DNA of 60,133 nt from a virus (IMGVR_UViG_3300013111_000391:1-60133); one strand, 5' to 3'. Positions 9,840 to 58,457 are shown, numbered from the stretch's first letter. The notes: generated by a model not told the origin, from the sequence alone. Numbers and translations: made by a program.

Positions 9840-10488
9840 TTTTATACATGAAAATATTCTTGGTGATATCGAACTCAATACTGTAACGGAGAATGGTAAG
9901 AGGTGTTACGTTACACCTACAGGTGAAAAATATCCATCAGTAACAACTGTTCTCTCTCAATACAAAAAACAAGGTATAATAGAATGGCGTAAACGAGTTG
10001 GTGAACAACAAGCCAATAAAATCTCCACACAAGCCTCAAGAAGAGGAACTAAAGTTCATAAACTTTGCGAGGACTATCTAAATAACGAATCTACATTCAA
10101 AGGATATACACCTGATAATGTAGAGATGTTTAAATCTATACAAACCATTTTAAATGAAATTGAAGTTGTTTATGCACAGGAGAGAACTTTATTTTCCCAC
10201 CATTTAAAAACTGCTGGAAGAGTTGATTGTGTTGGTAAATTTCGTGGAAAACTACATATAATTGATTTTAAGACCTCTAATAAACCAAAGAAAAAGGAAT
10301 GGATCGATAACTACTTTATGCAAGGATCGGCATATTCGGTCATGTGGGAAGAAATGACTGGTATTGCCATTCCATACATGGCAATTATCATAGCGGTTGC
10401 TGATGATGTACCACAAGTGTTTATAGAAAATCGTGATACCTGGATAAACAAATTTATTGAAGAAAGATCGAATTATGAAAACAGTTAA
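9832..10488 (+). CDS. PD-(D/E)xK exonuclease (T4-like marine phage type)
   Basis: YPSVTTVL, RGT.VH..CE.YL, AGRVDC, IIDFKTS and YF.Q..AY motifs. Confidence 0.9.
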   Translation: MTDFIHENILGDIELNTVTENGKRCYVTPTGEKYPSVTTVLSQYKKQGIIEWRKRVGEQQANKISTQASRRGTKVHKLCEDYLNNESTFKGYTPDNVEMFKSIQTILNEIEVVYAQERTLFSHHLKTAGRVDCVGKFRGKLHIIDFKTSNKPKKKEWIDNYFMQGSAYSVMWEEMTGIAIPYMAIIIAVADDVPQVFIENRDTWINKFIEERSNYENS

Positions 10489-11710
10489 TTTAGATTTTCT
10501 AATTACTTTAAAAGAAGAACAAGGTGAAACAAAAGTGAGCGAAAATTTAAATCGATTATTTAAATTCGATGAACCAATATTATTATATGATATGACTGAA
10601 GGTTCTAGAATGTGGCCCGTTGACATAGAGGGAGATGTCCCAAATGATGGCGTGGCATATGTATTTTATAGGGTACATGAAGGTTTAAAAAATCACAAAC
10701 ACGATATTTGGTTTTTATGCTCTGATTTAAATATTAAAGAAAGATATGAAAAATTTTGTTCATTAACTGGCTCTGAAAAAAAATTTAAATTATTATGTTT
10801 TCCATTTTCTATACAAACTGGTTTTCCAAGTTGGACAACAAAAGATATAAGAAAATTAAACAAAATACCAAACAAATGGAATTTTTGTCAATTGACTTCA
10901 AGTCCTCAAACTACGAGGGTGGCCACTATCGATAGATTTTATAAAAATAAAAACTTTCAATATTCATATGTTCCACAATTTCATTTCGAAAAAAATGAAG
11001 ACATTCGTCATAGGATTTACTATGCAGAGGAAAATGAACCAAAGTGGTGGTCCGAAAATTACAAGTTTAAAAATGGGTTTAATATACATTCGTCAAAACT
11101 TTTGACCGAAATAGACTTAAATAATACGGATGTTGATATGGGTCCTGAAAATATTTTGATAAACGGCATTTATTTGAATAAGGGTGTGTTTAATCACATG
11201 CTACCTGTTGAAAATCATGAGTCTTGTTGTGATATTGTCATAGAAACATATTGTAGTGGTCCTACATTTTTTACGGAAAAAACTTGGAAAGAAATATTTT
11301 TTGAGCGTCCGTTTATTCTTATGGGAGGTAAAGGGTATAATAAAGCGTTACAGAATTTGGGTTTTGAAATTTTTGAAGAGATATTTGATTATAGTTTTGA
11401 CGATGAATTACATACTTATACGAGGATGAAGTTATTTTGGGAGCAAATTGAAAAATATATTAATTTAAATGTGAAAGATTTCGCATCCAAAATAAAAATA
11501 TTAGATGAAAAAGTTAAACACAATAGAAAATTATACATTGATTACTTAAATAATTATGATTTAATATATAAAGTTTATGATCAAGAATATTTACACAATG
11601 ATAATAATTATTTGGTGTATTCGAATCGGGATGAAGATCTTTTCAATGACTATTCGGATATTCAGTTTAAAATTTTAAAAAAAACGTGTACAGGGTATTT
11701 CGATGTATAA
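10475..11710 (+). CDS. Putative glycosyltransferase-like protein (paralog of 18492..19346)
   Basis: C-terminal DIVIET...FFTEKTWK.....PFI..G...GFE.F.EIFDYSFD, reminiscent of the GT10-type TEK motif. Confidence 0.5.
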   Translation: MKTVNLDFLITLKEEQGETKVSENLNRLFKFDEPILLYDMTEGSRMWPVDIEGDVPNDGVAYVFYRVHEGLKNHKHDIWFLCSDLNIKERYEKFCSLTGSEKKFKLLCFPFSIQTGFPSWTTKDIRKLNKIPNKWNFCQLTSSPQTTRVATIDRFYKNKNFQYSYVPQFHFEKNEDIRHRIYYAEENEPKWWSENYKFKNGFNIHSSKLLTEIDLNNTDVDMGPENILINGIYLNKGVFNHMLPVENHESCCDIVIETYCSGPTFFTEKTWKEIFFERPFILMGGKGYNKALQNLGFEIFEEIFDYSFDDELHTYTRMKLFWEQIEKYINLNVKDFASKIKILDEKVKHNRKLYIDYLNNYDLIYKVYDQEYLHNDNNYLVYSNRDEDLFNDYSDIQFKILKKTCTGYFDV

Positions 11711-12389
11711 ATTAGATTATGATATTACAATAACAAGTTATTGTAATGCCGCCTGTCCTTCTTGTAAGAGATATAAAGATCATAATGAAAAACATTATAA
11801 TCCTATGGAACCATTACATCCTGGTTTAAATCAAGTACATATGAATTTTTTAGAGTTTAAATCTATCATAACGAGAGATATTGATTCTTTTAAATTATCT
11901 TTTGTTACCTATGAAGGAGAACTTGGAGATGCAATGGTCCATCCAGAAATAAAAAAATTTATAGATTTTGGTGTATCTGTATTCAAAACATTAAAAATAG
12001 TTACGAATGGTGGTGTAAGAAACCCTAATTTTTATAAGTCTTTAGGGGATATCTATCAAAATTTAGAAATAATGTTCTCAATTGATGGATTAGATGACAT
12101 AACAAATCAAAAATATAGAAGAAATGTTGTTACAAAAAAGGCATATGACAATATGATTGCATATAAAAATTCAAAATATAAAAATGTGAGTTGGCAATAT
12201 GTTATATTTGAACATAATTGGTTTGAAATACCAGAAATTTTAGATATTGCGAAAACAAATCAAATAGACATAGTGCTTAAAATAAATTCAAGACCAAAAT
12301 TTAGAGTAAAAAACAATATAATTCCATACATTGTAGACTTGTATGAAAAAAATAAATTTTCCGATAGTGAATTAGTTTTGGCGAATTGA
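11703..12389 (+). CDS. Radical SAM protein, class B core without SPASM
   Basis: CNAACPSC, G.LGD, TNGG, FSIDGL...N..YR and WQYVIFEHN motifs. Confidence 0.88.
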   Translation: MYKLDYDITITSYCNAACPSCKRYKDHNEKHYNPMEPLHPGLNQVHMNFLEFKSIITRDIDSFKLSFVTYEGELGDAMVHPEIKKFIDFGVSVFKTLKIVTNGGVRNPNFYKSLGDIYQNLEIMFSIDGLDDITNQKYRRNVVTKKAYDNMIAYKNSKYKNVSWQYVIFEHNWFEIPEILDIAKTNQIDIVLKINSRPKFRVKNNIIPYIVDLYEKNKFSDSELVLAN

Positions 12390-13057
12390 TGTTAACAAAT
12401 GAAAAAACTTGTGTTTTTAATTTTGAGTTGACCTCTTATTGTAATGCAGGTTGTCCTACATGTTTTAGAACAAGATTTTTAGATTTAATACCAAAACCGT
12501 TTAAACATTTAACAACAGAAACTTTTAGCACATTTATATTAAATAATATAGAGTTTTTAAAACGAAATAATTATGAACGATTGATTGCCAAATTTTGTGG
12601 TGAAATAGGTGACCCATTAATGAATCCTTATCTCAATGAATTAACTTCAATCGCAGAAAATGTATTTGATAGAGTTGATATCTATACGAATGGTGGATTA
12701 AAATCATCAAAATGGATAAGTAATTTTTTAGTATCTTACAAGAAGGCAAGATTTGTGTTTGGTATTGATGGATTATCCGATGAAACAAATCAAATATATC
12801 GAATAAGTGTAAATACGAATAAAGCATTAGAAAATATGTTTATGGCATCTAAATACAGGGAAACACGTTGGGATCATACAATATTTGAACACAATCATCA
12901 TGAGTTACTTGATGTAATACGATTGGCCAAAAAACATCACTTAGATTTATTGTGTAGATTTAATGGTAGAGAATTTAAAAAAATAAAAAATGAAGATCTT
13001 TTAAGGTGTGAAGCAATATTAAAATCATCAGGGATAAAATATTCCATATGCAGATAG
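12389..13057 (+). CDS. Radical SAM protein, class B core without SPASM
   Basis: ELTSYCNAGCPTC, FCGEIGDP, TNGG, FGIDGL and IFEHN motifs. Confidence 0.88.
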   Translation: MLTNEKTCVFNFELTSYCNAGCPTCFRTRFLDLIPKPFKHLTTETFSTFILNNIEFLKRNNYERLIAKFCGEIGDPLMNPYLNELTSIAENVFDRVDIYTNGGLKSSKWISNFLVSYKKARFVFGIDGLSDETNQIYRISVNTNKALENMFMASKYRETRWDHTIFEHNHHELLDVIRLAKKHHLDLLCRFNGREFKKIKNEDLLRCEAILKSSGIKYSICR

Positions 13058-13323: not shown

Positions 13324-13643
13324 ACAAAAATTTAAGAAATCTTGCGAAGGATCATGAAGATCTAGTCTATTGTGTTGGTTGGCACGAGCATCAAGATTGG
13401 GCTGAGGTCGAGATATCATCTGATTTTAGGGTTTATCCTTGTTGTACTTTACATGCTGTACATCAACTTGAAAAAACATTTTTTGACGATAAATTAGATT
13501 CTATGGACAAAGATTGGAATAATTTAAAAAAACATCGATTAAAAGACATAATGAAAATTTGGAGAGAATATATTTCACCTGATAAATGGAAAAGAGAAGA
13601 AACTCTTCCACAATGTTGTGATAAGTTATGTCGAGCAAAATAA
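13284..13643 (+). CDS. Stand-alone SPASM/Twitch-like Fe-S domain protein
   Basis: YC....VYPCC....NNLK......CCDKLC. Confidence 0.7.
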   Translation: MPSPLYENLPENINKNLRNLAKDHEDLVYCVGWHEHQDWAEVEISSDFRVYPCCTLHAVHQLEKTFFDDKLDSMDKDWNNLKKHRLKDIMKIWREYISPDKWKREETLPQCCDKLCRAK

Positions 13644-14434
13644 TAATTTTTGGTGATAGTTTTGCAGATCCTGAAGATAGACGAGTTGAAAACAAAGAAG
13701 TTACTGCTTGGTATGAATTTTTAGGTCAAGAATATAAAATAAAAAATTATGCATTAGCAGGGACAGGTCCCCACTACTCATTTAAAAACTATTATAATTT
13801 TATTTCTAATGGTGAGAATAAAGAAGAGTATATTTGTATTTTTTTATTAAGCGGAGAAGACAGGATTCATTATCCTGGTACAAATCCACAAACTTTAAAT
13901 AATATACATTGGGATTTTGATGAAAAAAAAAGTTGGTGGGTAGAAGATAACAAGAAACTGAAACAAAAAGAATATTATGAAAATTTTAAATCTGAAATTG
14001 ATTTTTTATTTTTGACGATGCATGATGATTTAGTATGGTCAAATTTTAAAAATCTAGGTTTTTTGCATATGAATTCTCTTTTATTGGGAATGAAAACGAT
14101 AGTTTTTTACACTTGTGGTTTAAAAATATTAAACAATATGATTTATAAGAATTTTTTTAAATTGAACACCTCTTATTTTTATTTAAGCACAAAAATATTA
14201 GGCACTGTTGCTCAAGAAGAAGTTGTCGATAAAAAAGAACTTGATAGATATAATTATCATGATTATAGAAGAAATCATTTATCACAAGAAAATCATATCA
14301 TATTATATGAAAATATAAAAAACATAATCAAAAATAAAAAAGAATTAAAACCATATGTCAAAAATTTGAATTATGCGAGTAATTTTGGGAAAATGTTTTA
14401 TACAGGTAAAATAGGAGAATTTATCTATGATTAA
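13628..14434 (+). CDS. SGNH/GDSL-like protein
   Basis: IFGDSF, N.A..GTG and RRNHLS..NH motifs. Confidence 0.6.
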   Translation: MSSKIIIFGDSFADPEDRRVENKEVTAWYEFLGQEYKIKNYALAGTGPHYSFKNYYNFISNGENKEEYICIFLLSGEDRIHYPGTNPQTLNNIHWDFDEKKSWWVEDNKKLKQKEYYENFKSEIDFLFLTMHDDLVWSNFKNLGFLHMNSLLLGMKTIVFYTCGLKILNNMIYKNFFKLNTSYFYLSTKILGTVAQEEVVDKKELDRYNYHDYRRNHLSQENHIILYENIKNIIKNKKELKPYVKNLNYASNFGKMFYTGKIGEFIYD

Positions 14435-15122
14435 AAAAATTAAATACGATCAAACAAAATATAACTTCAAAAACGTTTTTGAAAAACATTTCGAAGAAGA
14501 TTTAGATAAATTACATAAGAAATTTGAATTTGAACGCAAATTTTCAAACATGGCAGGAGGCACAGAAGAATTTTCTCTTGTTGCTGAAACATATACAAAG
14601 GTTATTCGAACTTCTGTTTTTAATGAATTATGGGTTTCTTTTATTCAAGAGGTCCTTAAACCATATTTTGATGATAGGAAAATTTATGTGCAAAAATTAC
14701 CTTCATTTAGGATATTCCCATCTCTTCATTCTATTCAATATGTGCAAAAAATTACTGATGGTTTTAATAAACATTTAGATAGTGAACCACCGTTTTATCA
14801 TCCTACTTTTGAAACGAATTTTTGGATTCCATTAATTGAATGTGATTTTCTTAATGATTTTTACTATCTTGATAAAGAAAAAGATTGGTATAGAAGAATA
14901 GATGCACGGATGAATGAATTAGTTGTTTTTGGTAATGATGTTGTTCACGGTAATCGTGTACATAATGAATCGCCTAATACAAGATGTTCACTGGATTTCA
15001 AAGCACTAGCAGTTGACGATTATGATGAAAGTGTTTTGACAGATCGTATTATTTTAAAACGAGGACAAAAGTTTAAACAAAAGGATTGGTATAGCACAAA
15101 ACATTATTATATGGAAATGTAA
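14427..15122 (+). CDS. StrG-like / 2OG-Fe(II) dioxygenase-fold protein
   Basis: Q..PSFR, HLD....HP..E.NFWIPL and HGN...N.S..TR.SLDF motifs. Confidence 0.7.
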   Translation: MIKKIKYDQTKYNFKNVFEKHFEEDLDKLHKKFEFERKFSNMAGGTEEFSLVAETYTKVIRTSVFNELWVSFIQEVLKPYFDDRKIYVQKLPSFRIFPSLHSIQYVQKITDGFNKHLDSEPPFYHPTFETNFWIPLIECDFLNDFYYLDKEKDWYRRIDARMNELVVFGNDVVHGNRVHNESPNTRCSLDFKALAVDDYDESVLTDRIILKRGQKFKQKDWYSTKHYYMEM

Positions 15123-16135
15123 TGGAAATATTTTCTGTTAATGATTGGGATCCACTCAAAGAAATAATAGTTGGTCGTGCCGATTTTGCTTATATACCAC
15201 CTCCTGACCCATCAATGAAAAATTTCATGTATGCTAATTTGTCATATCATGAAATTTCAAAATTCGTTGGTTCATACAGTGATAAAGTCATTGATGAGGC
15301 CAATCAAGATTTAGAGGAGTTAAGCGATAAATTAAAAGAACTTGGTGTCAAAGTTTATAGACCAAAACAAGTTAGACATGATGCATCAATAGTCACTCCA
15401 TATTGGAAAACAACTGGTTGGCATAATTATTGTCCTCGTGACATTTTTTTAGTGCTTGGAACGAGCATTGTTGAAGTACCGAGTGTGATGAGATGTCGAA
15501 TTTTTGAAACTTGGTCATATGATGATATTTTACATGAAGCATTTGATGATGGAGCTAAATGGTTTTCGGCCCCAAAACAAAGATATAAAGAAGAAAGTTT
15601 TAACTTTGATGATCTAAGCAAACCTACTCTAATGAATAAAGAGATACTATTTGATGCACCAAATGTTGTTCGTCTTGGAATGGATCTTCTATATCAAGAG
15701 AGTAATAGTGGTAATGAGAAGGGTGCTAAATGGTTACAGAGCATGTTTCCTGAATATAAAATACATATTGAACGAAATGCTTATTCTGGAGCACATATGG
15801 ATAGCACAATAATTCCATTGCGTGAAGGTCTTGTGCTTTTTAATGGTTTCAGGGTAACACCTGATAAATATCCAAAAATTTTTGAAAAATGGGATAAAAT
15901 ATTTTTTCATAATTTTCCTATGATAAAAACAGAAGCCTCTGGAATTTCATCTGATGCGATTGGTGTGAATTTATTAAGTGTTAATGAAAAACTTGTTATT
16001 GTAGACGAGAATCAAACTGAATTGATAAAAACATTGTTAAGATATGGTATTGAAAGCATACCGATGCCAATGAGACATCAAAGAACATTAGGAGGAGGGT
16101 TTCATTGCGTGACATTGGATCTAAAAAGAGGATAG
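15122..16135 (+). CDS. Amidinotransferase (glycine / inosamine-phosphate amidinotransferase family)
   Basis: NDWDPLKEIIVG, CPRD, FDA.N, H.DST and GGGFHCVTLD (catalytic Cys) motifs. Confidence 0.92.
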   Translation: MEIFSVNDWDPLKEIIVGRADFAYIPPPDPSMKNFMYANLSYHEISKFVGSYSDKVIDEANQDLEELSDKLKELGVKVYRPKQVRHDASIVTPYWKTTGWHNYCPRDIFLVLGTSIVEVPSVMRCRIFETWSYDDILHEAFDDGAKWFSAPKQRYKEESFNFDDLSKPTLMNKEILFDAPNVVRLGMDLLYQESNSGNEKGAKWLQSMFPEYKIHIERNAYSGAHMDSTIIPLREGLVLFNGFRVTPDKYPKIFEKWDKIFFHNFPMIKTEASGISSDAIGVNLLSVNEKLVIVDENQTELIKTLLRYGIESIPMPMRHQRTLGGGFHCVTLDLKRG

Positions 16136-17934
16136 CATTCCTTGAGTTGTCTCATATTTTTGCAAATCAAGTTAAATTACCGTATTCAACAGGATGTATT
16201 TGGAGTTATTGTAGGAAGATAGATGAAATATCGAATAATTTTTCTTTTGATCTTCATGATTGGTTCTATGTACTTGATGGTGAATTTGATGTAAATGATG
16301 CCGCCAAAAAGTTGTCTGAATGTGATGTTGTAGGTGTTTCATATTTTGTATGGAATACATTCAAATCAGATAAAGTTTGTGCAGAGATTAAAAAAATAAA
16401 TCCAGATTGTCTGATTGTTTATGGCGGTTTAGGCACACCAAAATATGGCAGATGTTCTGATTTTTTAAAGGAACGTCCATATGTTGATATAATCGTGCAT
16501 AATGAAGGAGAAATAGTTTTTTCTAATTTGTTAAAGGCAATTATTCACGATAAAGATTTTTTAACAGTCAATGGTATTACGACACAAACTTTTAGCACAC
16601 CATTAGAAAGTCGAATTAAAGACTTTCCATCAATGCCTAGTCCATATCTTGATGGTTTATTTGATGAACTAAATTCTATAAAAACAAATACTTATAATTG
16701 GGAAAGTCTAATAGAATTAGAGAGAGGTTGTCCATATACTTGTACATTTTGTGAGGTTGGTGATAGACATTGGACAAAAGTTATAAAGCAAGATTATGAG
16801 AAAATGGTTGCTGAAATTAATTGGGTTTCGAAAAGAAAAATTGAATATTTGCATTTAATTGATAATAATTTTGGTATGTTTAAAGAGCATAAAATTATAT
16901 CAGATTTGTTAATAAAAAATTATCAAGAATATGGTTATCCTAATGCTTTAAACATCACATGGGCTAAACATAAAAAACCATATTTGTTTGATATAGCAGA
17001 AGAATTGTGGAAAGCAGGTCTGAATAAAAGTGTGACCATAGCATTACAATCGATGAATTCACCCACATTGAAAGCAGTAGAACGAGCAAACGAAAACACA
17101 AATTTAAAACAAGTTATAGAGTATTTGAAAAAAAGAGGTATGCCTGCCTATATAGAAACTATACTTGGTTTACCTGAAGAGACATTTGACACTTTCAAGC
17201 AGGGATTGTATACTTTAATGGATGACATTGATTATCATAACTATGTAGGAATTTATGTAATGGTTGCTCTTCCAAATACACCATTTGGAGATGATGCATA
17301 TCTCAAAAAATATGGAGTTCAGATAAGACAAACGCCACCTGCTTTTTATCATCATGAACATCCACCAGATCAACTTCTAGAAGATTTGAATAATGTCGTA
17401 GTTGGTTCTAACGTCATGACTTTCGATGATTACATAAAAGCATCAGGATGGAAATGGTATATAACTACATTTCATTTTCTAGGGTGGCTTAGAATTTTGG
17501 CATTAGATTTGAAGAAAAAATATAATCTTACAATGAAAAATTTTTATGATGATTTATTTGATTGGGCGATGAATGATAGTGGAACAATGTTAAATGAAGA
17601 ATATTATGAAACCATTAATTCAACAAATAGGGTTTTTGAAAGAGAAATACCATGGGGTAGAAAAATATCAGATGTATCTGACACTTATTGGGAATATGAA
17701 GAAGCAACTTCAATCAATATTGCAAAAAATAAAGATAGATTCTATAATGAAATCAAAAGTTTTTTAGATATGAAATACAATATAAAAGAAGATATCATTA
17801 AAAAACAATATGACAAAATGATAGATCCATATGTGGATTATGATGGTGATTTAGAAAAATGGGCTAGAGAATGTATGTGGTGGGGTAGAAGAGCCGAATC
17901 GTTTTTTCACGGAGGACAACATGGAGTATCATAG
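16105..17934 (+). CDS. Cobalamin-binding radical SAM protein
   Basis: N-terminal B12-type domain (S.FVWN, YGG, EGE), SPYL.G, ERGCPYTCTFC, D.NFG, LQS and ILGLP.ET motifs. Confidence 0.9.
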   Translation: MRDIGSKKRIAFLELSHIFANQVKLPYSTGCIWSYCRKIDEISNNFSFDLHDWFYVLDGEFDVNDAAKKLSECDVVGVSYFVWNTFKSDKVCAEIKKINPDCLIVYGGLGTPKYGRCSDFLKERPYVDIIVHNEGEIVFSNLLKAIIHDKDFLTVNGITTQTFSTPLESRIKDFPSMPSPYLDGLFDELNSIKTNTYNWESLIELERGCPYTCTFCEVGDRHWTKVIKQDYEKMVAEINWVSKRKIEYLHLIDNNFGMFKEHKIISDLLIKNYQEYGYPNALNITWAKHKKPYLFDIAEELWKAGLNKSVTIALQSMNSPTLKAVERANENTNLKQVIEYLKKRGMPAYIETILGLPEETFDTFKQGLYTLMDDIDYHNYVGIYVMVALPNTPFGDDAYLKKYGVQIRQTPPAFYHHEHPPDQLLEDLNNVVVGSNVMTFDDYIKASGWKWYITTFHFLGWLRILALDLKKKYNLTMKNFYDDLFDWAMNDSGTMLNEEYYETINSTNRVFEREIPWGRKISDVSDTYWEYEEATSINIAKNKDRFYNEIKSFLDMKYNIKEDIIKKQYDKMIDPYVDYDGDLEKWARECMWWGRRAESFFHGGQHGVS

Positions 17935-18514: not shown

Positions 18515-19346
18515 TATTTTTTTGAACTCACCTGCTTCATGGAAAAGTGATATAAATTTTTTTGATTCTGTTGAATGTATAAATGCTACAGTGCCTAATT
18601 TTTACGATAACTTTAAAATTAATTTTTACACTCTTGATATTAACGTTCATCGATTGACAGACAACAACATATTTAAATGCGAACCATGGATGTTGTTTTT
18701 CAAATATATTAAAAATGAAAAATATTTTAAGTGCGATTTCAAAATTTCAAATGATGATATTTTGAAAAAATTTGTATCATTAAATTTTAATGTAAACTCA
18801 GATAAAAGTCATAGATTAGAGTTGTTAAAATTTATAGGGAAACACGACATAAACTGTTATTTTAGTAATATAGACAAAAATATCAAATTGACAGAAATAC
18901 CTGAACATTATCCAAATGGATATTTTAAAGGGCGTTATGATTACGGAGTGCCTAAAGAATATTTCTTAGGATTGATAGATATTGTAACCGAAGGTTCAAA
19001 TAATATGTCTACACATTTTTCAGAAAAATCGTTCAAATCTCTTTTTTATAAAAAACCTTTCATCAGTATAGCAGGTCCGTATTGGTATGAAACTTTTAAA
19101 AAATCTGGTTTTGAGTTATACGATGAAATATTCGATTATGCATTTGATGTTGATGAGAATAAAAATACAAGATTAGATGACATATTACTTCAAATAAAAC
19201 ATCTTAATTCATTGAATTATTCTGAATTGAATAATATTATCAAAACTATTCAACCTAAAATAGAGCATAATTTTAATCACTTATATACATTGGATTCTAA
19301 AAATTTAGAAAAGGCACATTTAGATAAAAATATTAAAGAATTATGA
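18492..19346 (+). CDS. Putative glycosyltransferase-like protein (paralog of 10475..11710)
   Basis: IDIVTE...FSEKSFK.....PFI...G...GFELYDEIFDYAFD. Confidence 0.5.
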   Translation: MRHFIVTDIFLNSPASWKSDINFFDSVECINATVPNFYDNFKINFYTLDINVHRLTDNNIFKCEPWMLFFKYIKNEKYFKCDFKISNDDILKKFVSLNFNVNSDKSHRLELLKFIGKHDINCYFSNIDKNIKLTEIPEHYPNGYFKGRYDYGVPKEYFLGLIDIVTEGSNNMSTHFSEKSFKSLFYKKPFISIAGPYWYETFKKSGFELYDEIFDYAFDVDENKNTRLDDILLQIKHLNSLNYSELNNIIKTIQPKIEHNFNHLYTLDSKNLEKAHLDKNIKEL

Positions 19347-20389
19347 TTTATTCTAACAACGATTGGAGTCAATTAAAAGAATGTTTTGTTGGTATTGCTG
19401 ACAACATGGTCCACCCAAAGATGGATTTGTCTGTCATGTCTTTTTCATATGCAGGATATGATTATGAAGAGGTCAAAGAGTTAAAGGGTGCTTATCCACA
19501 ATGGATTATAGATGAGGCAAATGAAGATTTAGATAATTTAAGTTTACAACTTAAAAAATTAGATGTTAAAGTTAGAAGACCTGAAAAAACAAAACATTCT
19601 AAAATATTTTCAAGTCCTGATTGGCAATCTACTGGTTGGTATAATTATTGTCCAAGAGATTTATTATTACCTCTTGACAATCTAATTATAGATTGTCCAT
19701 CCGCAATGAGATCAAGATACTTTGAAACATTTGCATACAGAAAATTTTTGTATAAGCAATTCGATGAGGGTGTTCAATGGATATCAGCCCCAAAACCTAG
19801 ATTATTGGATGATTTATATATATTTAAAGATTTGACAAAACCTACAGTATTAGATAAAGAAATTATTTTCGATGCCGCCAACATTGTGAGAATGGGTAAC
19901 GATTTATTATTTCAGGTTTCAAACTCAGGAACGATAAAAGGTGCGAGATGGCTTGAGAGTATTGTTAAGCCTTTAGGATATAGAGTTCATTTAGCAGATG
20001 GTTTTTATGCATATACACATTTTGATTCTACTGTCATACCGTTGAGACCTGGGCTTGTGTTATTTAATGGTGCAAGATTAAATGAAAACCATTATCCTAA
20101 AATTTTTGAAAAATGGGATAAAATATTTTTTGATGATATAATTGATATAGGTAGTTCTTTACCAAATGGTATTTCACCTTGTTCTCCATACATAGGATTA
20201 AACTTGTTGAGTATTAATGAAGAACTTGTAATTGTCGATGTCAATCAAACGTCTTTAAGAAAAAAATTATCGTCATATGGTATAGAATCGATAGGATTAA
20301 ATATGAGACATGCTAGAACAATATCAGGTGGTTTTCATTGTGTTACATTGGATACACTAAGAGATGGAAAAAGAGAAGACTATTTTTAA
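19343..20389 (+). CDS. Amidinotransferase (second copy)
   Basis: NDWSQLKE, CPRD, FDAAN, HFDST and GGFHCVTLD motifs. Confidence 0.92.
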   Translation: MIYSNNDWSQLKECFVGIADNMVHPKMDLSVMSFSYAGYDYEEVKELKGAYPQWIIDEANEDLDNLSLQLKKLDVKVRRPEKTKHSKIFSSPDWQSTGWYNYCPRDLLLPLDNLIIDCPSAMRSRYFETFAYRKFLYKQFDEGVQWISAPKPRLLDDLYIFKDLTKPTVLDKEIIFDAANIVRMGNDLLFQVSNSGTIKGARWLESIVKPLGYRVHLADGFYAYTHFDSTVIPLRPGLVLFNGARLNENHYPKIFEKWDKIFFDDIIDIGSSLPNGISPCSPYIGLNLLSINEELVIVDVNQTSLRKKLSSYGIESIGLNMRHARTISGGFHCVTLDTLRDGKREDYF

Positions 20390-46891: not shown

Positions 46892-48195
46892 TAGACTGTT
46901 ATTATGCATTGGGTGGAATAAATTATAAAAATGGTGTCATTACAACATGCCCGAGACAGGCAAATCAATTGGTTTTTGCAAATGAAACAATATTACCATC
47001 CGAAATTTACAATCATAAAAATTTTAAACATATTCGAAAATTATTGCATAATAATGTCTGGCCATCAGGATGTGATACATGTGAGGATATGGAAAAAGAC
47101 AATTTAAAATCTATGAGATTGGATTTTGTTTTAAAAAATAATAAGTTTTTTAAAAATACTGCTACAGGGTTTAATGAGGCGGAAAATGGCGATAGATCAT
47201 TACTGGATTGTTACAATGAGAGTGAACACTCAGTAGACTTTAGAGGATTAAAACACGTTGAATTAAGATTTAGCACGGCATGTAATTTTTCGTGTTTGCA
47301 TTGTTCAAAGGTTTATTCATCTGGATGGTCTAAAAAATTAAAAAATTATGAACCAGATCATGAAGTCATAAGAAATGATTTACGACAACTTATGGGAACA
47401 GAACACAGACATGGCCCAAACGATAATTCTGAAATGAGATTGACAACTGAACAGGCAATCAAAATCGTAGAAGATTTAAACGAAAACTTTCCTAATGTAA
47501 GATATGTTGATTTTGCGGGTGGTGAATTATTATATCAAAAACAATTTTTTCCCACACTAAGAAAACTAGCAGAGCATCCAAATGCTAAAAATATGCTCAT
47601 TTCTTTTCATACGAACTTTAATGCAAATTTTAGCGTAGATGAATTATCGGATGTTTTAAGTAAATTCAAAGAATCCTGTATAATTATTTCTGTTGATGCA
47701 GGTAGAAATACTTACTCATATTTTAGACATGGTGGTGAGTGGGACAAACTAAAATTAAATTTAGTTGACTTCAAAAAAATTAACAAGTTTTCGCATATAG
47801 ACATTTCTTGTACAACATCAATTTATCAAATTATGGACATATATGATGTTTTTGATTCGTTTTTCGAATTGAATTGTTCTTTTGATGCTTCAATAGTGCA
47901 AACTCCAAAATATATTAATCCATCTATAATAATGTTTGATTTTGAAAAAGAAACTTTAAAAGATTTTGAAAAAACAGAACAGTTATTAAAAAATATTAAA
48001 TCAAAATTTAAATTGAAAGCAACAAAATGGTTTAACTATATTACGAATTATGTCAAAAACACAAGATTATCATATAATAATTTTAATAGATTTTTAATTT
48101 ATAGAAAAAAATCAGATGAATTATGGGGTCAAAATTTTAATGATTATTTTCAAAATTATCAAATTGAAGATAATGAACTTATCAGAATAAGATGA
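46888..48195 (+). CDS. Radical SAM protein, class A
   Basis: C..TTC..CDTC, CNFSCLHC and AGGE motifs. Confidence 0.9.
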   Translation: MIDCYYALGGINYKNGVITTCPRQANQLVFANETILPSEIYNHKNFKHIRKLLHNNVWPSGCDTCEDMEKDNLKSMRLDFVLKNNKFFKNTATGFNEAENGDRSLLDCYNESEHSVDFRGLKHVELRFSTACNFSCLHCSKVYSSGWSKKLKNYEPDHEVIRNDLRQLMGTEHRHGPNDNSEMRLTTEQAIKIVEDLNENFPNVRYVDFAGGELLYQKQFFPTLRKLAEHPNAKNMLISFHTNFNANFSVDELSDVLSKFKESCIIISVDAGRNTYSYFRHGGEWDKLKLNLVDFKKINKFSHIDISCTTSIYQIMDIYDVFDSFFELNCSFDASIVQTPKYINPSIIMFDFEKETLKDFEKTEQLLKNIKSKFKLKATKWFNYITNYVKNTRLSYNNFNRFLIYRKKSDELWGQNFNDYFQNYQIEDNELIRIR

Positions 48196-53714: not shown

Positions 53715-53715
53715 A

Positions 53716-54618: not shown

Positions 54619-55386
54619 AATTAAATGACAATTTTTATTTTTGGAGATAGTTTTTCATGTCGATATGACGATTGTTATTATGATGGTGAGATAGATGATT
54701 TGTGGTATGATATTGTAATGAGAGAGATGAGAGAAAATGTTGTCAATACATCAGAAGGCGGAAAAGGCCCATATTCATCATTTAAATTTTTTTATGAACA
54801 TGTTGAACAAAATAATATAAAAGAGGGTGATAAAATTATTTTTATGTTATCTTCTCAATATAGATTACCGTTTAAATTCTTGGATGATAAAGATTTAGGA
54901 TATGATTATATAGATTATTTTTTGAATAATGAATTGATATTTCCAAAAGAAATAGAATTGTATATTGAGAATTTTTCTTACGATATCATATCAACATATG
55001 ACACCCTCAAAGAGGAAATAGATAGGGCAAATATAAAAAACTTATATTTTTTAAAAACATTTTCAAATTTAAAAAAAATAAAAACAATTTGTTTTCGTTG
55101 TTTCGAATATAAAAAATATGATCATTATGAATTATCGAGTCTTAATGATGATTATTTCAATCTCAATTCAAATATTTTATGGAATGTATCTTTATGTGAA
55201 AATGAGTTGAGGCATAATTCGGATACAATGAATAATCAAAGAGCAAATCATTTATCGTATTGTAATCATAAAATATTGTCGAATATTATTTTAAATTTTT
55301 TTAGTAATAGATCTCTTTTGGAAGAATTTCATAAAAATATTTTTAAAAAACAAAAATCAAAAGAACAGTTTATCTATGAGTAAAAT
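54604..55386 (+). repeat. 18-bp exact direct repeat TTTATCTATGAGTAAAAT flanking gene 54625..55383
   Basis: Copies at 54604-54621 and 55369-55386. Confidence 0.8.
54625..55383 (+). CDS. SGNH/GDSL-like protein
   Basis: IFGDSF, N.S.GG.G and RANHLS..NH motifs. Ends in FIYE. Confidence 0.55.
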   Translation: MTIFIFGDSFSCRYDDCYYDGEIDDLWYDIVMREMRENVVNTSEGGKGPYSSFKFFYEHVEQNNIKEGDKIIFMLSSQYRLPFKFLDDKDLGYDYIDYFLNNELIFPKEIELYIENFSYDIISTYDTLKEEIDRANIKNLYFLKTFSNLKKIKTICFRCFEYKKYDHYELSSLNDDYFNLNSNILWNVSLCENELRHNSDTMNNQRANHLSYCNHKILSNIILNFFSNRSLLEEFHKNIFKKQKSKEQFIYE

Positions 55387-56101
55387 AAAAATTAATTGTC
55401 TTAAATGGGGCTCTCTTTATGGGCCCGAATATGTGAATAGATCATATGGTGGATTGTTACGTCATTGTAGAGTACCATTTCTTTTTACGTGTTACACGGA
55501 TAATTCAGACGGTATAAATTCAAATATTGAGGTTAGGGATATTCAAGAATTAAGACCTTATGATACAAAAAGAGTATTTACATATGAAAAATTAATGTTA
55601 ATTGACAAAGATGAATATGATAAAAATTTGTGGATAGATTTAGATTTATTAGTACATGATGATATGACCGAAGTTATCACGAGACCTCACAATAATATAA
55701 CTTTCATATGGAATTATTGGAATGATTACGAAAGATTGAGTTTGTTTAATTTTGGTCGTGGTGTATCTTGCCATACAAACTCATCGTTTGTTGCTTGGGA
55801 TAAAGGCACTGCAACATGGCTTTTAGATTATACTCATAAACATTGGGAAAAAATTGAATGGACTTATAAAAGTTTAGACAAATATTTGTTTTATCAGCAT
55901 TTTAGAAAAAACAAATTAAATTTGTGGGAAGATGGAATATTCTCAAATTTCAACAAGCAGGGATATGAACTGAGAAATAAGGCAACTCTTTTTAATACAT
56001 CTCATTTGTATAATAATAAAAATATGCATGATGTTAAACATTTTGAATTGCATGAATCATCAGCAAAGGATCTATGGATAAGTTACTCGAATGGATTATA
56101 A
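55376..56101 (+). CDS. Glycosyltransferase-like protein (GT-A, DxD)
   Basis: CLKWG..YGPEYVN, CYTD, IDLD and NSS motifs. Confidence 0.7.
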   Translation: MSKIKINCLKWGSLYGPEYVNRSYGGLLRHCRVPFLFTCYTDNSDGINSNIEVRDIQELRPYDTKRVFTYEKLMLIDKDEYDKNLWIDLDLLVHDDMTEVITRPHNNITFIWNYWNDYERLSLFNFGRGVSCHTNSSFVAWDKGTATWLLDYTHKHWEKIEWTYKSLDKYLFYQHFRKNKLNLWEDGIFSNFNKQGYELRNKATLFNTSHLYNNKNMHDVKHFELHESSAKDLWISYSNGL

Positions 56102-56496
56102 ATCATGATGAGGTTACACTTCTCTGTTGCCCTAGTTTTTTGTTATTAAAAAAAATAAGAGGGCTAGGTATTGACGTAGAGTGTATTAATTATGATATAA
56201 ATTTTAGAGATATACCTACAATCACATGTAAAGACTTTGTATTTGATGATGTGACATTTTCAAAAGATTGTGTAGTGAATTATAATTGTGAAAAAACTTT
56301 CCCTGTTGGTAAAATGAAAAAAGGTTTGACATTAATTCTAAAAGGTGATGATAAAGAGCATAATGGAGATTGTAATCCAATAAAATCTGTTGAACAATTA
56401 ATAGAACAGAATAATATAACAAACGTTTTTGACTCGTTTATTGTTCCGAGTAGAAATAAAAAATATAATCAATATTGCGTTTATGGATCAAATTAA
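56074..56496 (+). CDS. Hypothetical protein, degenerate methyltransferase-like
   Basis: VVNYNCE and NPIKSVEQLIEQN mirror VINTSSE and NCVNNVEELIDKN of the next gene. Confidence 0.5.
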   Translation: MDKLLEWIINHDEVTLLCCPSFLLLKKIRGLGIDVECINYDINFRDIPTITCKDFVFDDVTFSKDCVVNYNCEKTFPVGKMKKGLTLILKGDDKEHNGDCNPIKSVEQLIEQNNITNVFDSFIVPSRNKKYNQYCVYGSN

Positions 56497-57277
56497 AAAT
56501 TGGCGTCAGAATAAAAATAAAATCAGTGATCATAAAATTAAAATAGGAGAATTGAATGGGGTCATTGGTGAACATAACATCGAAATCGGATTAATCCGTG
56601 ATAAAATTGGTCAAGTTAGGGATGAAATAGGTGTTGAGAAAGAACATATTTCAATTTGTGAGAACAAAAATAGAGAGACACCATATTATTGGGTAAGTCA
56701 GTGGGTTAATAATAATATACCATCTTATTATCAAAGTTTTGAGGATTCTGTTTCACAAGGGCAATATGATTCAAAACTTTGGCTAATAAAAAAATTAAAA
56801 AATATCAAATTATACACTGATGAAGTACACATCGATATTATAGGATCATGGTTTGGGTTTCCATTAATAGAGTTGTTATCTGGTATTTTTAAGATAAAAC
56901 AAATTGATTTGTATGACATAGATGAGAATTGTCATAAAGTGGTTGCTCAATATATAAATCATTTCGATCCTGCTTTTAAAATTGCTCAATATGGAGATTA
57001 TTTTGAAAGAACTGATTTACGTAGAAGGCATATTGTCATTAATACTTCTTCCGAACATATGTCGGATATTGTGTCGATGAGAAAATATTATAAAGATTAT
57101 CCTGATTCTCCTATTTTAGCAATACAATCAAATAATTATTTTACGTTAGACGATCATATTAATTGCGTAAATAATGTTGAAGAATTGATTGATAAAAATC
57201 ATATTAATCGAGTATTATATAAAGGCACTCAAAAGTTGCCGTTATACGATAGATACATGGTTATAGGGCAATGGTAG
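56483..57277 (+). CDS. Class I SAM-dependent methyltransferase-like protein with N-terminal coiled coil
   Basis: SK.WL, IIGSWFG (motif I), YDID, INTSSEHM and QSNNY motifs. Confidence 0.7.
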   Translation: MDQIKNWRQNKNKISDHKIKIGELNGVIGEHNIEIGLIRDKIGQVRDEIGVEKEHISICENKNRETPYYWVSQWVNNNIPSYYQSFEDSVSQGQYDSKLWLIKKLKNIKLYTDEVHIDIIGSWFGFPLIELLSGIFKIKQIDLYDIDENCHKVVAQYINHFDPAFKIAQYGDYFERTDLRRRHIVINTSSEHMSDIVSMRKYYKDYPDSPILAIQSNNYFTLDDHINCVNNVEELIDKNHINRVLYKGTQKLPLYDRYMVIGQW

Positions 57278-57831
57278 ATTTTGTTTTTGTGCGAACAGGC
57301 GACAAATATGAAGAGTGGTATGAAAAAAATTTAATTTACATGGCAGAGAAGTTTGGTAAATTAAAAATTGATAATATCATTGCCATAAGAGAGGGTGAAG
57401 GTGCAGTATACGATAAATTAAAAATGTTTGATATCTGCACGGAGAATAAATTTTATATTTATTTTGATTTGGATGTTGTTATAAAAGGTGATGTCAATCA
57501 TCTTATACGTGATAATTTTACAACTTTATATGCTTGGTGGAGAGACAGATTACACACACCTTTCAACTCATCAATTATGTCATGGTATGGGGATCATTCT
57601 TATATTTACGATGATTTTTATAATGATGAAGATTATAGCAGAGTGAAATACTGGAGAGGTATTGACGAATATCTTTATAATGAATGTGAAGTACAATTGT
57701 ATGAAAGAACCTGTTGGTCATTCATGTATTCTACTGAAATAATGCATTATCCAGTTTGTTTATTTAATCATAATTTTCACACTATGATGAGAAAGATACC
57801 ATGGACACAAGAGTATTTGCTATTAGAATAG
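57271..57831 (+). CDS. Glycosyltransferase-like protein (GT-A, DxD)
   Basis: VRTGDKY...Y, KL.MF, YFDLDVVI and NSS.M.W motifs. Confidence 0.7.
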   Translation: MVDFVFVRTGDKYEEWYEKNLIYMAEKFGKLKIDNIIAIREGEGAVYDKLKMFDICTENKFYIYFDLDVVIKGDVNHLIRDNFTTLYAWWRDRLHTPFNSSIMSWYGDHSYIYDDFYNDEDYSRVKYWRGIDEYLYNECEVQLYERTCWSFMYSTEIMHYPVCLFNHNFHTMMRKIPWTQEYLLLE

Positions 57832-58457
57832 GTGAGAAATTTGGACAAGATGTAGAAAATTACATCAATTCTAAATTACCAAATGTCACATGGATACGTG
57901 ATGAATTAGATGGTGTGAGATTGCAGTGGAATAAAATGCGAGTTATGAATATGGATATTGATGAACCGGTTGTTGTGATTGATATTGATTTAGAATTTAT
58001 AAATGATTATATGGATGCTATAAATTATCCAATAGAACGAGGTCAATTTCTTTCAGCAAAATCATGGTGGAGAGACACCGCAAAATCTGGACTTTCATAT
58101 TCTGTGAACGGTGGATTTTTTAAATATTATCCAAAAGATTGTAAATATATTTACGAAAAATTCATGAAAGACAAATTATATTGGCAGAGATTTTATATAG
58201 ATAATGGCACTACTGTAGGTCCAGTAAATGGTGAACAATATTTTGTAGAAGATTCGGTTAAGGAAAGGCTAGAATTAAAATTTTTACCAGAGACTTGGTT
58301 TACTAAAAGTGTGAAGAATCCGACAAAAGAGTGGTGGGCAAGAATGAATACATTATATCCAGGTGACTGGTTATATCTAGATGGTTATAACCCAGACATA
58401 AAAATAATACATCAAATGTTTGGTGGAAAATTTATCAATTTACCTACACGGTCCTGA
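57801..58457 (+). CDS. Glycosyltransferase-like protein (GT-A, DxD)
   Basis: IRIGEKF, WNK, IDID, NGG and GEQ motifs. Confidence 0.65.
   Translation: MDTRVFAIRIGEKFGQDVENYINSKLPNVTWIRDELDGVRLQWNKMRVMNMDIDEPVVVIDIDLEFINDYMDAINYPIERGQFLSAKSWWRDTAKSGLSYSVNGGFFKYYPKDCKYIYEKFMKDKLYWQRFYIDNGTTVGPVNGEQYFVEDSVKERLELKFLPETWFTKSVKNPTKEWWARMNTLYPGDWLYLDGYNPDIKIIHQMFGGKFINLPTRS

Follow-up and report, generated by a model that had tools for sequence, protein, structure and literature searches.

Radical S-adenosylmethionine (rSAM) enzymes perform chemistry beyond the reach of ordinary enzymes, and one viral DNA record raises the question of what a phage might do with 21 of them. The record, IMGVR_UViG_3300013111_000391 (positions 1-60133), is a complete, linear IMG/VR entry of 60,133 b, and the whole of it is referred to here as the window. 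Between positions 10457 and 58457 the window carries a 48-kb block, the island, in which 56 of the 70 open reading frames (ORFs) that we list are found, 21 of them coding for rSAM proteins. A preliminary description, made by a model from the sequence alone, had interpreted this block as a dedicated phage pathway that builds a modified polymer or metabolite, and had named glycans, virion proteins, the host surface and DNA as example targets. The analysis presented here favors carbohydrate or amino-sugar chemistry among these targets and disfavors modified DNA. Specifically, we propose that the island encodes a phage pathway for making or decorating unusual amino-sugars, or a glycan composed of such sugars, a reading to which we assign a probability of roughly 45%. 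Genes are named below by their first coordinate, and their positions are collected in Table 1.

The radical SAM gene set

The motif CX3CX2C occurs in 21 of the 70 window ORFs, at all of the positions given in the preliminary description; choice of start codon is the sole difference from the starts given there, and affects six of the 21. By chance the motif would be rare, since 1000 residue shuffles of the same ORFs produced it in a mean of 0.2 ORFs and in two at most. Profile searches bear out these assignments to differing degrees. The rSAM profile PF04055 matches all 21 proteins at E<=1e-3, 17 of them above its gathering cut-off of 29.5 bits, and the four that fall below (11703, 20.1 bits; 12386, 27.5; 32232, 24.7; 43356, 26.8; E<=8e-4) are paralogues of passing members in an all-vs-all BLASTP comparison. 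A six-frame search with the same profile gave 20 matches, covering 19 of the 21 genes. The C-terminal SPASM profile PF13186 exceeds its cut-off of 21.5 bits in 33289 (25.5 bits) and scores 17.8-19 bits in 43356, 45965 and 52647, and the B12-binding profile PF02310 reaches 23 bits in 16105, against a cut-off of 32.1.

The BLASTP comparison sorts the 21 proteins into a family A of twelve (20364, 28136, 32232, 34971, 36800, 38200, 41123, 42304, 44895, 46888, 49250 and 50430), a family B of six minimal rSAM-SPASM proteins (11703, 12386, 33289, 43356, 45965 and 52647), the pair 39994 and 48192, and the B12-type protein 16105. Because pairwise identities between paralogues are 20-37%, the expansion appears to be old.

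All 56 island ORFs lie on the plus strand, and 50 of the 55 junctions between them overlap, in agreement with the preliminary description. The largest gap had been put at about 25 bp, which fits four of the five gaps (24, 7, 11 and 6 bp); the fifth, between the halogenase and ANL genes, measures 152 bp. A 67-amino-acid hydrophobic ORF (26495-26698) would fill it, if it is a real gene, and its product may be a small membrane protein. No terminator-like sites were found on the plus strand between 9 and 28 kb, and a promoter and terminator scan of that interval did not rise above shuffled sequence (135 versus 123 +/- 13, and 3 versus 5.4). The island genes would be read as long polycistronic messages, within an early, replication-side hyperplastic region. 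The G+C content is 0.34-0.40 in the first 10 kb of the window and 0.25-0.34 in the island, with 0.342 around 36800; the lower island values may reflect a separate compositional history.

Compared with the closest relative, G001, the ratio of nonsynonymous to synonymous substitution (dN/dS) is 0.07-0.18 for nine island genes and 0.06-0.18 for five flanking phage genes. In addition, core rSAM proteins of the window are 65-80% identical to those of two further relatives, G006 and G008, although the RNase H proteins are only 46-51% identical. These values argue that the pathway is in use, and they support the view, held in the preliminary description, of one intact and dedicated phage-encoded pathway under purifying selection; the decay considered there is not apparent, as island and flanking genes behave alike. 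Twenty-one rSAM genes maintained by selection in 48 kb, about a quarter of a 150-180 kb genome such as those of the complete relatives, imply a large gain for the phage.

Genomic setting and relatives of the island

The T4-type RNase H gene, four tRNA genes and synteny with complete T4-like genomes identify the record as a phage fragment, and its source lineage is predicted to be a marine T4-like phage (a T4-like myovirus related to the Kyanoviridae). The RNase H matches 1710 phage records; identity is 53% with the enzyme of Methylophilales phage Melnitz (Kyanoviridae) and 48% with its counterparts in T4-like Synechococcus phages. By Pfam, the first 10 kb encode a collagen-repeat protein, an S8 subtilase, DUF3310, a cell-wall hydrolase, a GT1 glycosyltransferase (GT), RNase H, DUF6433, a nucleotidyltransferase and a PDDEXK nuclease. 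A Gp23-type major capsid protein, proposed earlier as a marker of phage context, is absent from the 60-kb fragment but present in all five related records that carry a 36800 orthologue; psbA was found in none of these five. CheckV estimates the completeness of the record at 16%. This figure implies a genome of about 375 kb, at odds with syntenic complete relatives of 150-177 kb, and may stem from jumbo relatives.

The gene order rnh, DUF6433, cell-wall hydrolase and PDDEXK nuclease is common to the window and Melnitz, whose nuclease is 41% identical to 9832, and the nuclease gene has the same position in G001, G006 and G008. In Melnitz about 1 kb lies between this gene and gp33, gp59, thyX and gp32, whereas in the complete 167-kb genome G006 the nuclease gene ends at about 54.2 kb and gp33 starts at about 102.9 kb, and in the 177-kb genome G008 the two are about 41 kb apart. 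Because a spacing of about 1 kb is thus replaced by one of about 41 kb or more, gene order indicates that the island occupies a single hyperplastic site, bounded by the PDDEXK nuclease gene and gp33/gp59/gp32, in the replication-side part of a T4-like genome. The window stops before gp33, and its last two ORFs, on the minus strand, match nothing in Pfam or PHROGs. The preliminary description had placed the island between T4-like core genes and probable virion genes; the left flank is indeed T4-type, but the right flank in complete relatives consists of gp33/gp59/gp32 rather than virion genes. A chimeric or cellular contig, also considered there, does not fit the recurrence of the junction between phage replication genes and island in G001, G006 and G008. 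A 3292-nt sequencing contig, from a run that may be the window's own source, covers positions 7441-10732 over the left boundary with 0 differences.

Fourteen genes are shared with both G006 and G008 in nearly the same order: 36800, 36010, 39994, 43356, 45965, 46888, 42304, 48192, 49250, 52647, 55376, 56074, 56429 and 57271. The amidinotransferases, B12-type rSAM and halogenase have weaker or divergent matches there (23-30% identity), and the carbamoyltransferase and several other ORFs have none. Judged by these comparisons, a conserved core is retained through the phage lineage while other cassettes vary. Orthologues of 36800 were found at 44 IMG/VR loci. Six-frame Radical_SAM matches, which are not exact gene counts, range from 2 to 22 in 18 related records, with 11-17 in 13 of them; G001 has 17, and the complete genomes G006 and G008 have 16 and 15. 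In G016, a 328-kb jumbo T4-like genome with terminal repeats (locus L037), 22 Radical_SAM matches are scattered over 69-296 kb with no single island.

Relatives of 36800 at E<=1e-10 number 3302 in a 90%-clustered collection, and a library of 50%-clustered representatives yields 8005 at E<=1e-3, 4861 at 1e-10 and 773 at 1e-30. Against 50,697 phage records, 48192 found no match, and a nucleotide search with positions 1-24000 of the window found none either; the hits of 38200 and 36800 to phage records were all weak and partial (23-27% identity) and came from Vibrio, Ralstonia and a single marine virus record. The core is therefore carried by no cultured phage of that collection.

Cellular counterparts of the core

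A scan with an alignment of 36800 orthologues, limited to one genome per species, identified 73 cellular loci, mostly in Bdellovibrionales, Bacteriovoracaceae and Pseudobdellovibrionaceae, with identities of about 50%. They include a cultured isolate (2.2-Mb contig), chromosome-scale contigs and two contigs of the candidate phyla radiation (CPR), from Parcubacteria and Dojkabacteria. Proteins of the 48192 type occur at 52 of the 73 loci (median identity 58%), of the 52647 type at 52 (median 40%) and of the 56429 type at 31. A unit of three rSAM proteins and a methyltransferase-fold protein is thus common to the phage, Bdellovibrionota and CPR chromosomes, at 40-58% identity. The premise of the preliminary description that bacterial clusters hold only a few rSAM enzymes does not survive this survey: 10 CX3CX2C ORFs occur within 21 kb of a Bacteriovoracaceae chromosome (L086), and 12 within 21 kb of a 1.27-Mb Parcubacteria contig (L112). 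In the latter all 12 are on one strand.

In the chromosome of a Bdellovibrio sp. isolate (L075), orthologues of 52647, 56429, 48192 and 36800 alternate with six glycosyltransferase genes, five of the GT2 and one of the GT7C family; the 3' ends of rSAM genes are overlapped by two of the GT2 genes. Five of the eleven GT2 matches in this 3.9-Mb genome fall in the 21-kb locus. In five genomes taken together, the five 21-kb loci amount to about 0.6% of 16.9 Mb, so that about 0.4 GT2 matches would be expected in them; of the 60 GT2 matches in these genomes, 16 fall there. The GT2 profile matches at 23 of the 73 loci, and GT2 is the only Pfam family that recurs among 88 non-rSAM neighbors (8 of 88). 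This alternation of core rSAM orthologues with glycosyltransferases is one reason to favor carbohydrate chemistry.

In a FastTree phylogeny of 36800 orthologues, all 38 viral rows and the window form one clade (support 94) nested among Bdellovibrionota rows. The tree, from FastTree only, was rooted on five paralogues and carries long-branch warnings, so that it hints at a single entry into phages, and at the direction of transfer, in a way that is suggestive only. Four contigs of metagenome-assembled genomes, labelled Chloroflexota, Acidimicrobiaceae, Rickettsiales and Gammaproteobacteria (L055, L056, L058 and L059), carry a phage-type island in phage order and group inside the viral clade, and probably represent phage DNA that was binned with cellular contigs.

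Radical SAM families and candidate substrates

Family A corresponds to the NCBIfam family NF033640, N_Twi_rSAM. Ten of its twelve members exceed the family cut-off of 170 bits (189.8-406.7 bits); 34971 scores 159.7 bits, and 20364 matches in two pieces of 102.4 and 65.8 bits. Their alignment contains four invariant cysteines in an N-terminal domain, followed by CX3CX2C and then by a GGE motif (G196, G197, E198) invariant in all twelve. The Pfam SPASM profile matches residues 5-100 in four of them. NF033640 is a large named family without a known reaction, and so represents an uncharacterized branch of radical enzymology; its tandem multiplication, its fusions and its link with GT2 are observations of the present analysis. 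N_Twi domains are fused to one another (commonly among the fusions listed, as two rSAM units in a single protein of about 800 amino acids), to an rSAM-SPASM protein (P0165) and to a 21656-like protein (P0259), and these fusions tie the parts together. The fusion proteins seen are P0124, P0126, P0137, P0146-P0148, P0165 and P0259; one fusion, of 1413 amino acids, carries an unexplained N-terminus of 570 residues.

The island rSAM proteins might instead mature a peptide or protein, crosslinking, epimerizing or methylating a ribosomal peptide or a phage or host protein such as a virion fiber, while the other enzymes decorate side chains. SPASM and twitch rSAM proteins are a hallmark of maturases of peptides that are ribosomally synthesized and then post-translationally modified (RiPPs), weak NCBIfam matches to many peptide maturases occur among the island proteins, and a flavin halogenase and 2-oxoglutarate (2OG) oxygenases are able to act on residues. 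The AlphaFold2 (AF2) model of 36800 (predicted local distance difference test, pLDDT, 89.8; predicted TM-score, pTM, 0.90) finds SkfB first in a Foldseek search of the PDB (3.8e-8), with the peptide maturases CteB and SuiB, and then BlsE, viperin and MoaA. At TM-scores of about 0.3, however, these generic matches to a predicted model do not discriminate the substrate. A PDB search with the 36800 alignment found SkfB only (E 7.7e-4), and PDB searches with 48192, P0124 and P0259 found nothing useful. A collagen triple-helix repeat protein (5' end open) is directly followed by the S8 subtilase at positions 1-3032, outside the island, which speaks for this reading; the two may be a fiber protein and its processing protease. 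The island itself offers no precursor candidate in its five inter-ORF gaps, where the lone 67-amino-acid ORF is hydrophobic, though a distant or trans-encoded precursor is possible. Like RiPP maturases, the island enzymes combine an auxiliary-cluster domain with an rSAM core, but in N_Twi proteins this domain is N-terminal and is a four-cysteine cluster domain rather than a recognized peptide-binding domain, and the island lacks a precursor, RiPP recognition element, peptidase and exporter. Moreover, the cellular orthologues lie among glycosyltransferases and not among peptidases or exporters, and the StrB1-like and NodU-like enzymes point toward sugars. We therefore regard peptide maturation as unlikely.

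Family B includes two short rSAM ORFs, 11703 and 12386; behind them stand 13048 and 13284, the free SPASM-like ORFs already recognized in the preliminary description. The latter are paralogous to each other (E 2e-9), and 13284 resembles the C-terminus of 43356 (E 8e-6). The split parts are 61-63% identical in G006 (63% for 11703), where a SPASM-like ORF stands immediately upstream of an rSAM ORF; the split is thus conserved, and it may show the origin of the N-terminal auxiliary domain. The closest NCBIfam family to family B is a tungsten cofactor oxidoreductase radical SAM maturase, with weak matches to heme and tetraether-lipid rSAM families. One might thus suppose a lipid, cofactor or metallocluster target, with a paralogue expansion that reflects substrate diversification unrelated to glycans, and the roughly 18 island ORFs without assignment leave room for it. 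All of these matches lie far below the family cut-offs and no lipid or cofactor pathway genes were recognized by Pfam, which leaves such a target only a slim chance. For the pair 39994 and 48192, NCBIfam gives weak viperin-family matches. The best NCBIfam match of 16105 is the KedN5 sugar C-methyltransferase family (NF033712), at 224.8 bits against a cut-off of 700; membership in that family was rejected on this score, and the protein resembles class B rSAM enzymes.

Accessory enzymes and the proposed chemistry

Much of the accessory set named in the preliminary description was recovered: two StrB1-like amidinotransferases, a carbamoyltransferase, a halogenase and a nitroreductase by Pfam or PDB profiles, an ANL ligase, although partial, a QueC-like ATPase, five SGNH-like proteins by motifs and profile alignment (hhalign), and a methyltransferase, as a predicted fold. 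The pyridoxal phosphate (PLP) enzyme 21656 matches a PDB aminotransferase weakly, and the kinase 39428 shows a motif seen by eye. Two of four proposed dioxygenases are supported (23856 and 21178) and two are not; hhalign found no remote paralogue of 23856 among 38 families. No short-chain dehydrogenase/reductase was found, and the glycosyltransferase-like proteins described in the island were not confirmed, since 55376, 57271 and 57801 do not match the GT2 profile and comparison with GTs of the cultured cyanophage S-SCSM2R gave no firm identity, while 10457 and 18492 align with its GT10 only weakly (probability 3.5%, E 0.012).

The amidinotransferase profile aligns with positions 3-349 of the 350 of 1bwd (inosamine-phosphate amidinotransferase) and also matches HsvA, SxtG and AGAT. 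Among 14 aligned sequences, H225, H319, H328 and D333 are invariant and D227 and C329 are at least 90% conserved; the conserved cysteine near the C-terminus and the His/Asp residues are presumably catalytic. In 21656, D149, S173 and K176 are invariant in the alignment, and an Atlas search gave Aminotran_1_2 in 14% of one cluster, a low-share lead; the Atlas searches otherwise returned viral 'hypothetical' clusters and, in all, two such leads. The carbamoyltransferase 22507 is 95% identical in G001, and its best NCBIfam match is NodU, below cut-off; 26664 matches acyl-CoA ligase families, also below cut-off. The model of 56429 finds nearly all SAM-dependent methyltransferases among the 50 Foldseek matches listed (E about 1e-6, TM 0.4-0.5), together with MtNAS and CntL, SAM-dependent aminoalkyl transferases that share the fold. 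For nine of ten core unknowns, PHROGs gave nothing. Upstream of the island, the GT1 protein 5871 is 79% identical in G001 and 48-49% in G006 and G008, with an N-acetylglucosamine transferase subfamily of lipopolysaccharide synthesis as its best NCBIfam match, below cut-off; 8857 matches sugar-1-phosphate nucleotidyltransferase families, each below cut-off.

The StrB1-like amidinotransferases, the NodU-like carbamoyltransferase and the sugar-1-phosphate nucleotidyltransferase are a second reason to favor carbohydrate chemistry. Together with the observed paralogy, conservation, selection and cellular GT context, these gene identities suggest a substrate class and a sequence of reactions. The rSAM enzymes (12 N_Twi, 6 rSAM-SPASM, 2 viperin/MoaA-like and 1 B12-type) would attack C-H bonds of sugars or cyclitols, for instance to oxidize alcohols to ketones, to epimerize, to deoxygenate or to C-methylate. 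The positions activated in this way would next be converted and capped by the accessory enzymes. Transamination may be the task of the PLP-like protein; the two amidinotransferases would turn amines into guanidino groups; the NodU-like enzyme would O-carbamoylate; and the PP-loop enzyme 36010 may activate or amidate a carboxylate. Addition or removal of acyl groups could fall to the SGNH-like proteins, further decoration to the methyltransferase-fold protein, the halogenase and the 2OG oxygenases, and supply and transfer of activated sugar to the upstream nucleotidyltransferase and GT1. The order of oxidation, transamination and amidination is that of aminoglycoside biochemistry (BtrN with its aminotransferase, and StrB1), and would apply here by analogy. 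The product may end up on the host envelope, on the virion or free.

Several observations weigh against an amino-sugar or glycan pathway. No recognizable glycosyltransferase lies inside the island, the GT2 profile matching none of the window ORFs and only 4 of the 44 IMG/VR loci, and the nearest GT is the GT1 gene 3.6 kb upstream. Flippase, polymerase and exporter families have no match at E<=0.01 in the 70 ORFs (Pfam), and 50 of the 73 cellular loci have no GT2 within 10 kb. About 18 of the 56 island ORFs, 30844 and 51733 among them, are without any assignment, and the nearest solved structures to 36800, at low TM-scores, are the peptide maturases noted above. Finally, we know of no N_Twi enzyme with an established reaction, and the reaction logic follows the precedent of BtrN/BtrS and StrB1.

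Two further explanations were considered. The first holds that the island makes a free secondary metabolite, aminoglycoside- or aminocyclitol-like with guanidino and carbamoyl groups, that acts on the host, competing phages or other cells. Amidinotransferases, a carbamoyltransferase, a B12-type rSAM, a PLP-like protein, a kinase-like motif, an ANL enzyme, a halogenase and a nitroreductase form a typical natural-product toolkit, and the authors of S-SCSM2R label a homologous trio 'antibiotic synthesis genes' of unclear purpose (PMC12801897). No exporter or self-resistance gene was recognized in a Pfam scan of the window ORFs, however, and the GT-rich contexts in Bdellovibrionota and S-SCSM2R fit a glycoconjugate better, so that we consider a free product doubtful; its chemistry would be that of the amino-sugar pathway, from which it differs only in the product's destination.

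The second is hypermodification of DNA or nucleotides, with glycosylated or 7-deazaguanine-type bases and with rSAM and PP-loop enzymes making the base or its appendage. Points in its favor are the position of the island among replication genes, the presence of amidinotransferase homologues in Campylobacter phages, the action on nucleotides of viperin/MoaA/QueE-type rSAM enzymes, which 39994 and 48192 weakly recall, and the QueC-like C-terminus of 36010. The SGGxDS motif and four cysteines are invariant in the 36010 alignment, but the QueC match is confined to the last 60 or so residues, and the similarity of the PP-loop part is to asparagine synthetase, in its synthetase domain (PDB, E 1.6e-5). 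Neither the ThyA/dCMP-hydroxymethylase family nor the tRNA-guanine transglycosylase (TGT)/DpdA family was found in any of five related genomes (completeness at least 90% for four of them), and the same core stands beside GT2 genes in bacterial chromosomes. DNA modification is accordingly disfavored as very improbable.

Relation to known systems

Marine T4-like myoviruses rich in rSAM genes, like the lineage of the window, are already known: Nishimura et al. (2017; PMC5332604) described a 183-kb T4-like environmental marine genome with 12 radical SAM genes, and Zaragoza-Solas et al. (2020; PMC7029224) noted that two pelagimyophages have different rSAM cassettes. In the portions of these papers available, the genes are counted or mentioned (iron-sulfur demand, a host-recognition cluster) without family assignment, anatomy, cellular counterpart or function, and the window differs in its 21 rSAM genes in one replication-side block between PDDEXK and gp33/gp59/gp32. 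Our literature search found no paper that treats these islands beyond the cited mentions, although the same genes may appear in Table S1E of the PMC5332604 supplement or in the figures of PMC7029224.

The cultured cyanophage S-SCSM2R has a smaller cluster of glycosyltransferases, rSAM and amidinotransferase, which is our third reason to favor carbohydrate chemistry. Its locus runs 2OG, GT, GT25, GT, PLP enzyme, rSAM, GT, 2OG, amidinotransferase and GT2, with five GTs. Like the window, S-SCSM2R groups an amidinotransferase (38.5% identity with 15122) with 2OG oxygenases, a PLP enzyme, an rSAM protein and a PrnA-type halogenase, in a single block of co-directional genes that occupies the corresponding side of the genome. 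The proportions are reversed: 13 glycosyltransferases are annotated in S-SCSM2R, with one rSAM in the stretch examined, against 21 rSAM genes and no recognized GT in the island of the window. Clusters for 'cell wall synthesis and modification' are described in S-SCSM2R, with S-SCSM1 and P-SSM2 also named, and a second amidinotransferase (ORF266) is reported in the virion proteome (PMC12801897). A host-envelope role was proposed for the glycosyltransferases of pelagimyophages (PMC7029224).

Tailoring of aminocyclitols and aminoglycosides shares with the island a twitch rSAM (BtrN), PLP-like, amidinotransferase (StrB1), carbamoyltransferase and B12-rSAM functions. The island differs in having no recognized 2-deoxy-scyllo-inosose synthase or other scaffold enzyme, and its rSAM proteins are not BtrN relatives by sequence, BtrN being absent from the PDB search results.

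While rSAM-rich T4-like marine phages, phage glycan islands and the name of the N_Twi_rSAM family are already known, four aspects of the present locus seem novel: the number of clustered rSAM genes (21), the arrangement of a conserved core and variable cassettes at one insertion site, the four-gene unit that the phage has in common with Bdellovibrionota and CPR bacteria, and the association with glycosyltransferases. The GT link in a cultured Bdellovibrio and the cluster of a cultured cyanophage are two tractable systems for determining reaction and product. If the product is a surface glycan, such islands would matter for host range, superinfection exclusion and grazing among abundant marine phage-host pairs, and would be a source of new carbohydrate-modifying radical enzymes. 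A bolder and rather speculative extension is that the island represents the most expanded known form of a hitherto undescribed radical-SAM glycan-diversification system, whose ancestral unit of N-terminal-twitch rSAM, 48192-type, rSAM-SPASM and methyltransferase-fold proteins is common to T4-like phages, predatory Bdellovibrionota and CPR epibionts. Each paralogue would perform a regiospecific sugar oxidation or epimerization that feeds transamination, amidination and carbamoylation, and the resulting polycationic guanidino-glycans might coat the parasite or rewrite the prey envelope, with cassette turnover resembling O-antigen diversification.

Features of the window

Table 1. Coordinates of the island, its genes and flanking features, with supporting matches
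Position	Strand	Feature	Evidence or remark
3581..4569	+	tRNA genes Arg-tct, Thr-tgt, Asn-gtt, Pro-tgg (n=4)	left flank
5871..6872	+	GT1/GT4-type glycosyltransferase	Pfam Glyco_trans_1_4 47.7 bits
7455..8315	+	T4-type RNase H / flap endonuclease	Pfam 5_3_exonuc_N and RNaseH_C
8857..9579	+	Sugar-1-phosphate nucleotidyltransferase	Pfam NTP_transferase 48.5 bits
9832..10488	+	PD-(D/E)XK nuclease, left anchor of insertion site	Pfam PDDEXK_1 24.6 bits
10457..58457	+	Island, 56 co-directional ORFs including 21 radical SAM	48-kb block
10457..11710	+	Protein with domain paralogous to 18492-19346	blastp E 2e-17; hhalign 100%
11703..12389	+	Short rSAM, family B, without SPASM	CX3CX2C at residue 14; PF04055 20.1 bits, E 8e-4
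12386..13057	+	Short rSAM, family B, without SPASM	CX3CX2C at residue 19; PF04055 27.5 bits
13048-13323, 13284-13643	+	Two free SPASM-like Cys-rich ORFs	Pfam SPASM 18 bits, E 0.0035, below cut-off
13628..14434	+	SGNH-like protein	FGDSF, GxGP, NH motifs; hhalign 100% to 54625; no Pfam match
15122..16135	+	StrB1-like amidinotransferase	profile vs PDB 1bwd E 6.3e-87
16105..17934	+	B12-binding-domain radical SAM, class B, methyltransferase-like	PF04055 55.8 bits
17921..18514	+	Remote SGNH-like protein, fifth member	hhalign to 54625 family 96.4%, E 1.4e-9
19343..20389	+	StrB1-like amidinotransferase, paralogue of 15122 (53% identical)	
20364..21188	+	Short N_Twi-type rSAM, C-terminally shorter	PF04055 45.3 bits; N-terminal SPASM-like 19.8 bits
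21178..21723	+	2OG-Fe(II)-oxygenase-like protein	hhalign 95%, E 3.8e-8, to S-SCSM2R 2OG oxygenase ORF308; no Pfam match
21656..22510	+	Probable PLP (aminotransferase-like) protein	profile vs PDB aminotransferase 3if2 E 1.2e-3 (weak)
22507..23859	+	NodU/CmcH-type carbamoyltransferase	Pfam Carbam_trans_C 162.5 bits, Carbam_trans_N 88.7 bits
23856..24269	+	2OG-Fe(II) oxygenase	Pfam 2OG-FeII_Oxy_3 45.3 bits
24294..24977	+	Nitroreductase-family flavoprotein	Pfam 27.3 bits; 59-60% in G006/G008
25285..26511	+	Flavin-dependent halogenase family protein	Pfam Trp_halogenase 209.3 bits
26664..27638	+	ANL (AMP-binding) enzyme without family N-terminal third	Pfam AMP-binding 47.1 bits, model 166-359 of 384
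28136..29245	+	N_Twi rSAM	NF033640 195.3-195.5 bits
32232..33296	+	N_Twi rSAM	NF033640 189.8 bits
33289..34233	+	rSAM with C-terminal SPASM, family B	PF04055 39.6 bits; SPASM 25.5 bits
34199..34981	+	SGNH-like protein	GDS/GxGP/NH motifs and hhalign
34971..36038	+	N_Twi-like rSAM, just under family cut-off	NF033640 159.7 bits; PF04055 29.9 bits
36010..36807	+	PP-loop ATPase, QueC-like C-terminal Cys4, core gene	Pfam QueC 29.9 bits
36800..38221	+	Flagship N_Twi rSAM, core triad member 1	NF033640 407 bits
38200..39447	+	N_Twi rSAM	NF033640 208.5-209 bits
39428..40006	+	Small protein with kinase-like catalytic-loop motif	DIKPSN, VDID by eye; no Pfam match; weak
39994..41133	+	rSAM, core gene, N-terminal part related to 48192	PF04055 36.6 bits; 74-76% in G006/G008
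41123..42316	+	N_Twi rSAM	NF033640 202 bits
42304..43344	+	N_Twi rSAM, core gene	NF033640 198 bits
43356..44351	+	rSAM-SPASM, family B, core gene	PF04055 26.8, SPASM 17.9 bits; 58% in G006/G008
44895..45995	+	N_Twi rSAM	NF033640 204.4 bits
45965..46891	+	rSAM-SPASM, family B, core gene	PF04055 49.7 bits; 64-65% in G006/G008
46888..48195	+	N_Twi rSAM, core gene	NF033640 198.9-199.5 bits
48192..49259	+	rSAM, core triad member 2	PF04055 60.6 bits
49250..50452	+	N_Twi rSAM	NF033640 241.3 bits
50430..51758	+	N_Twi rSAM	NF033640 225 bits
52647..53714	+	rSAM-SPASM, core triad member 3	PF04055 36.3 bits
53644-54618, 54625-55383	+	Two SGNH-like proteins	GDS/GxGP/NH motifs and hhalign
55376..56101	+	Hydrophobic-DxD protein, family with 57271 and 57801	hhalign to 57271 97%
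56429..57277	+	Class I SAM-methyltransferase-fold protein, fourth core member	AF2 pLDDT 87.8
57271-57831, 57801-58457	+	Two DxD-family ORFs, island end	hhalign 57801~57271 91%

The protein 10457, which opens the island, has no match in Pfam or the PDB. The identity of 36800, the first member of the core triad, is 79-80% in G006 and G008 and about 50% in Bdellovibrionota. An Rfam scan of the window detected the four tRNA genes and nothing else; the DUF3310 ORF, with a called start at 4534, overlaps tRNA-Pro, and its true start is probably later.

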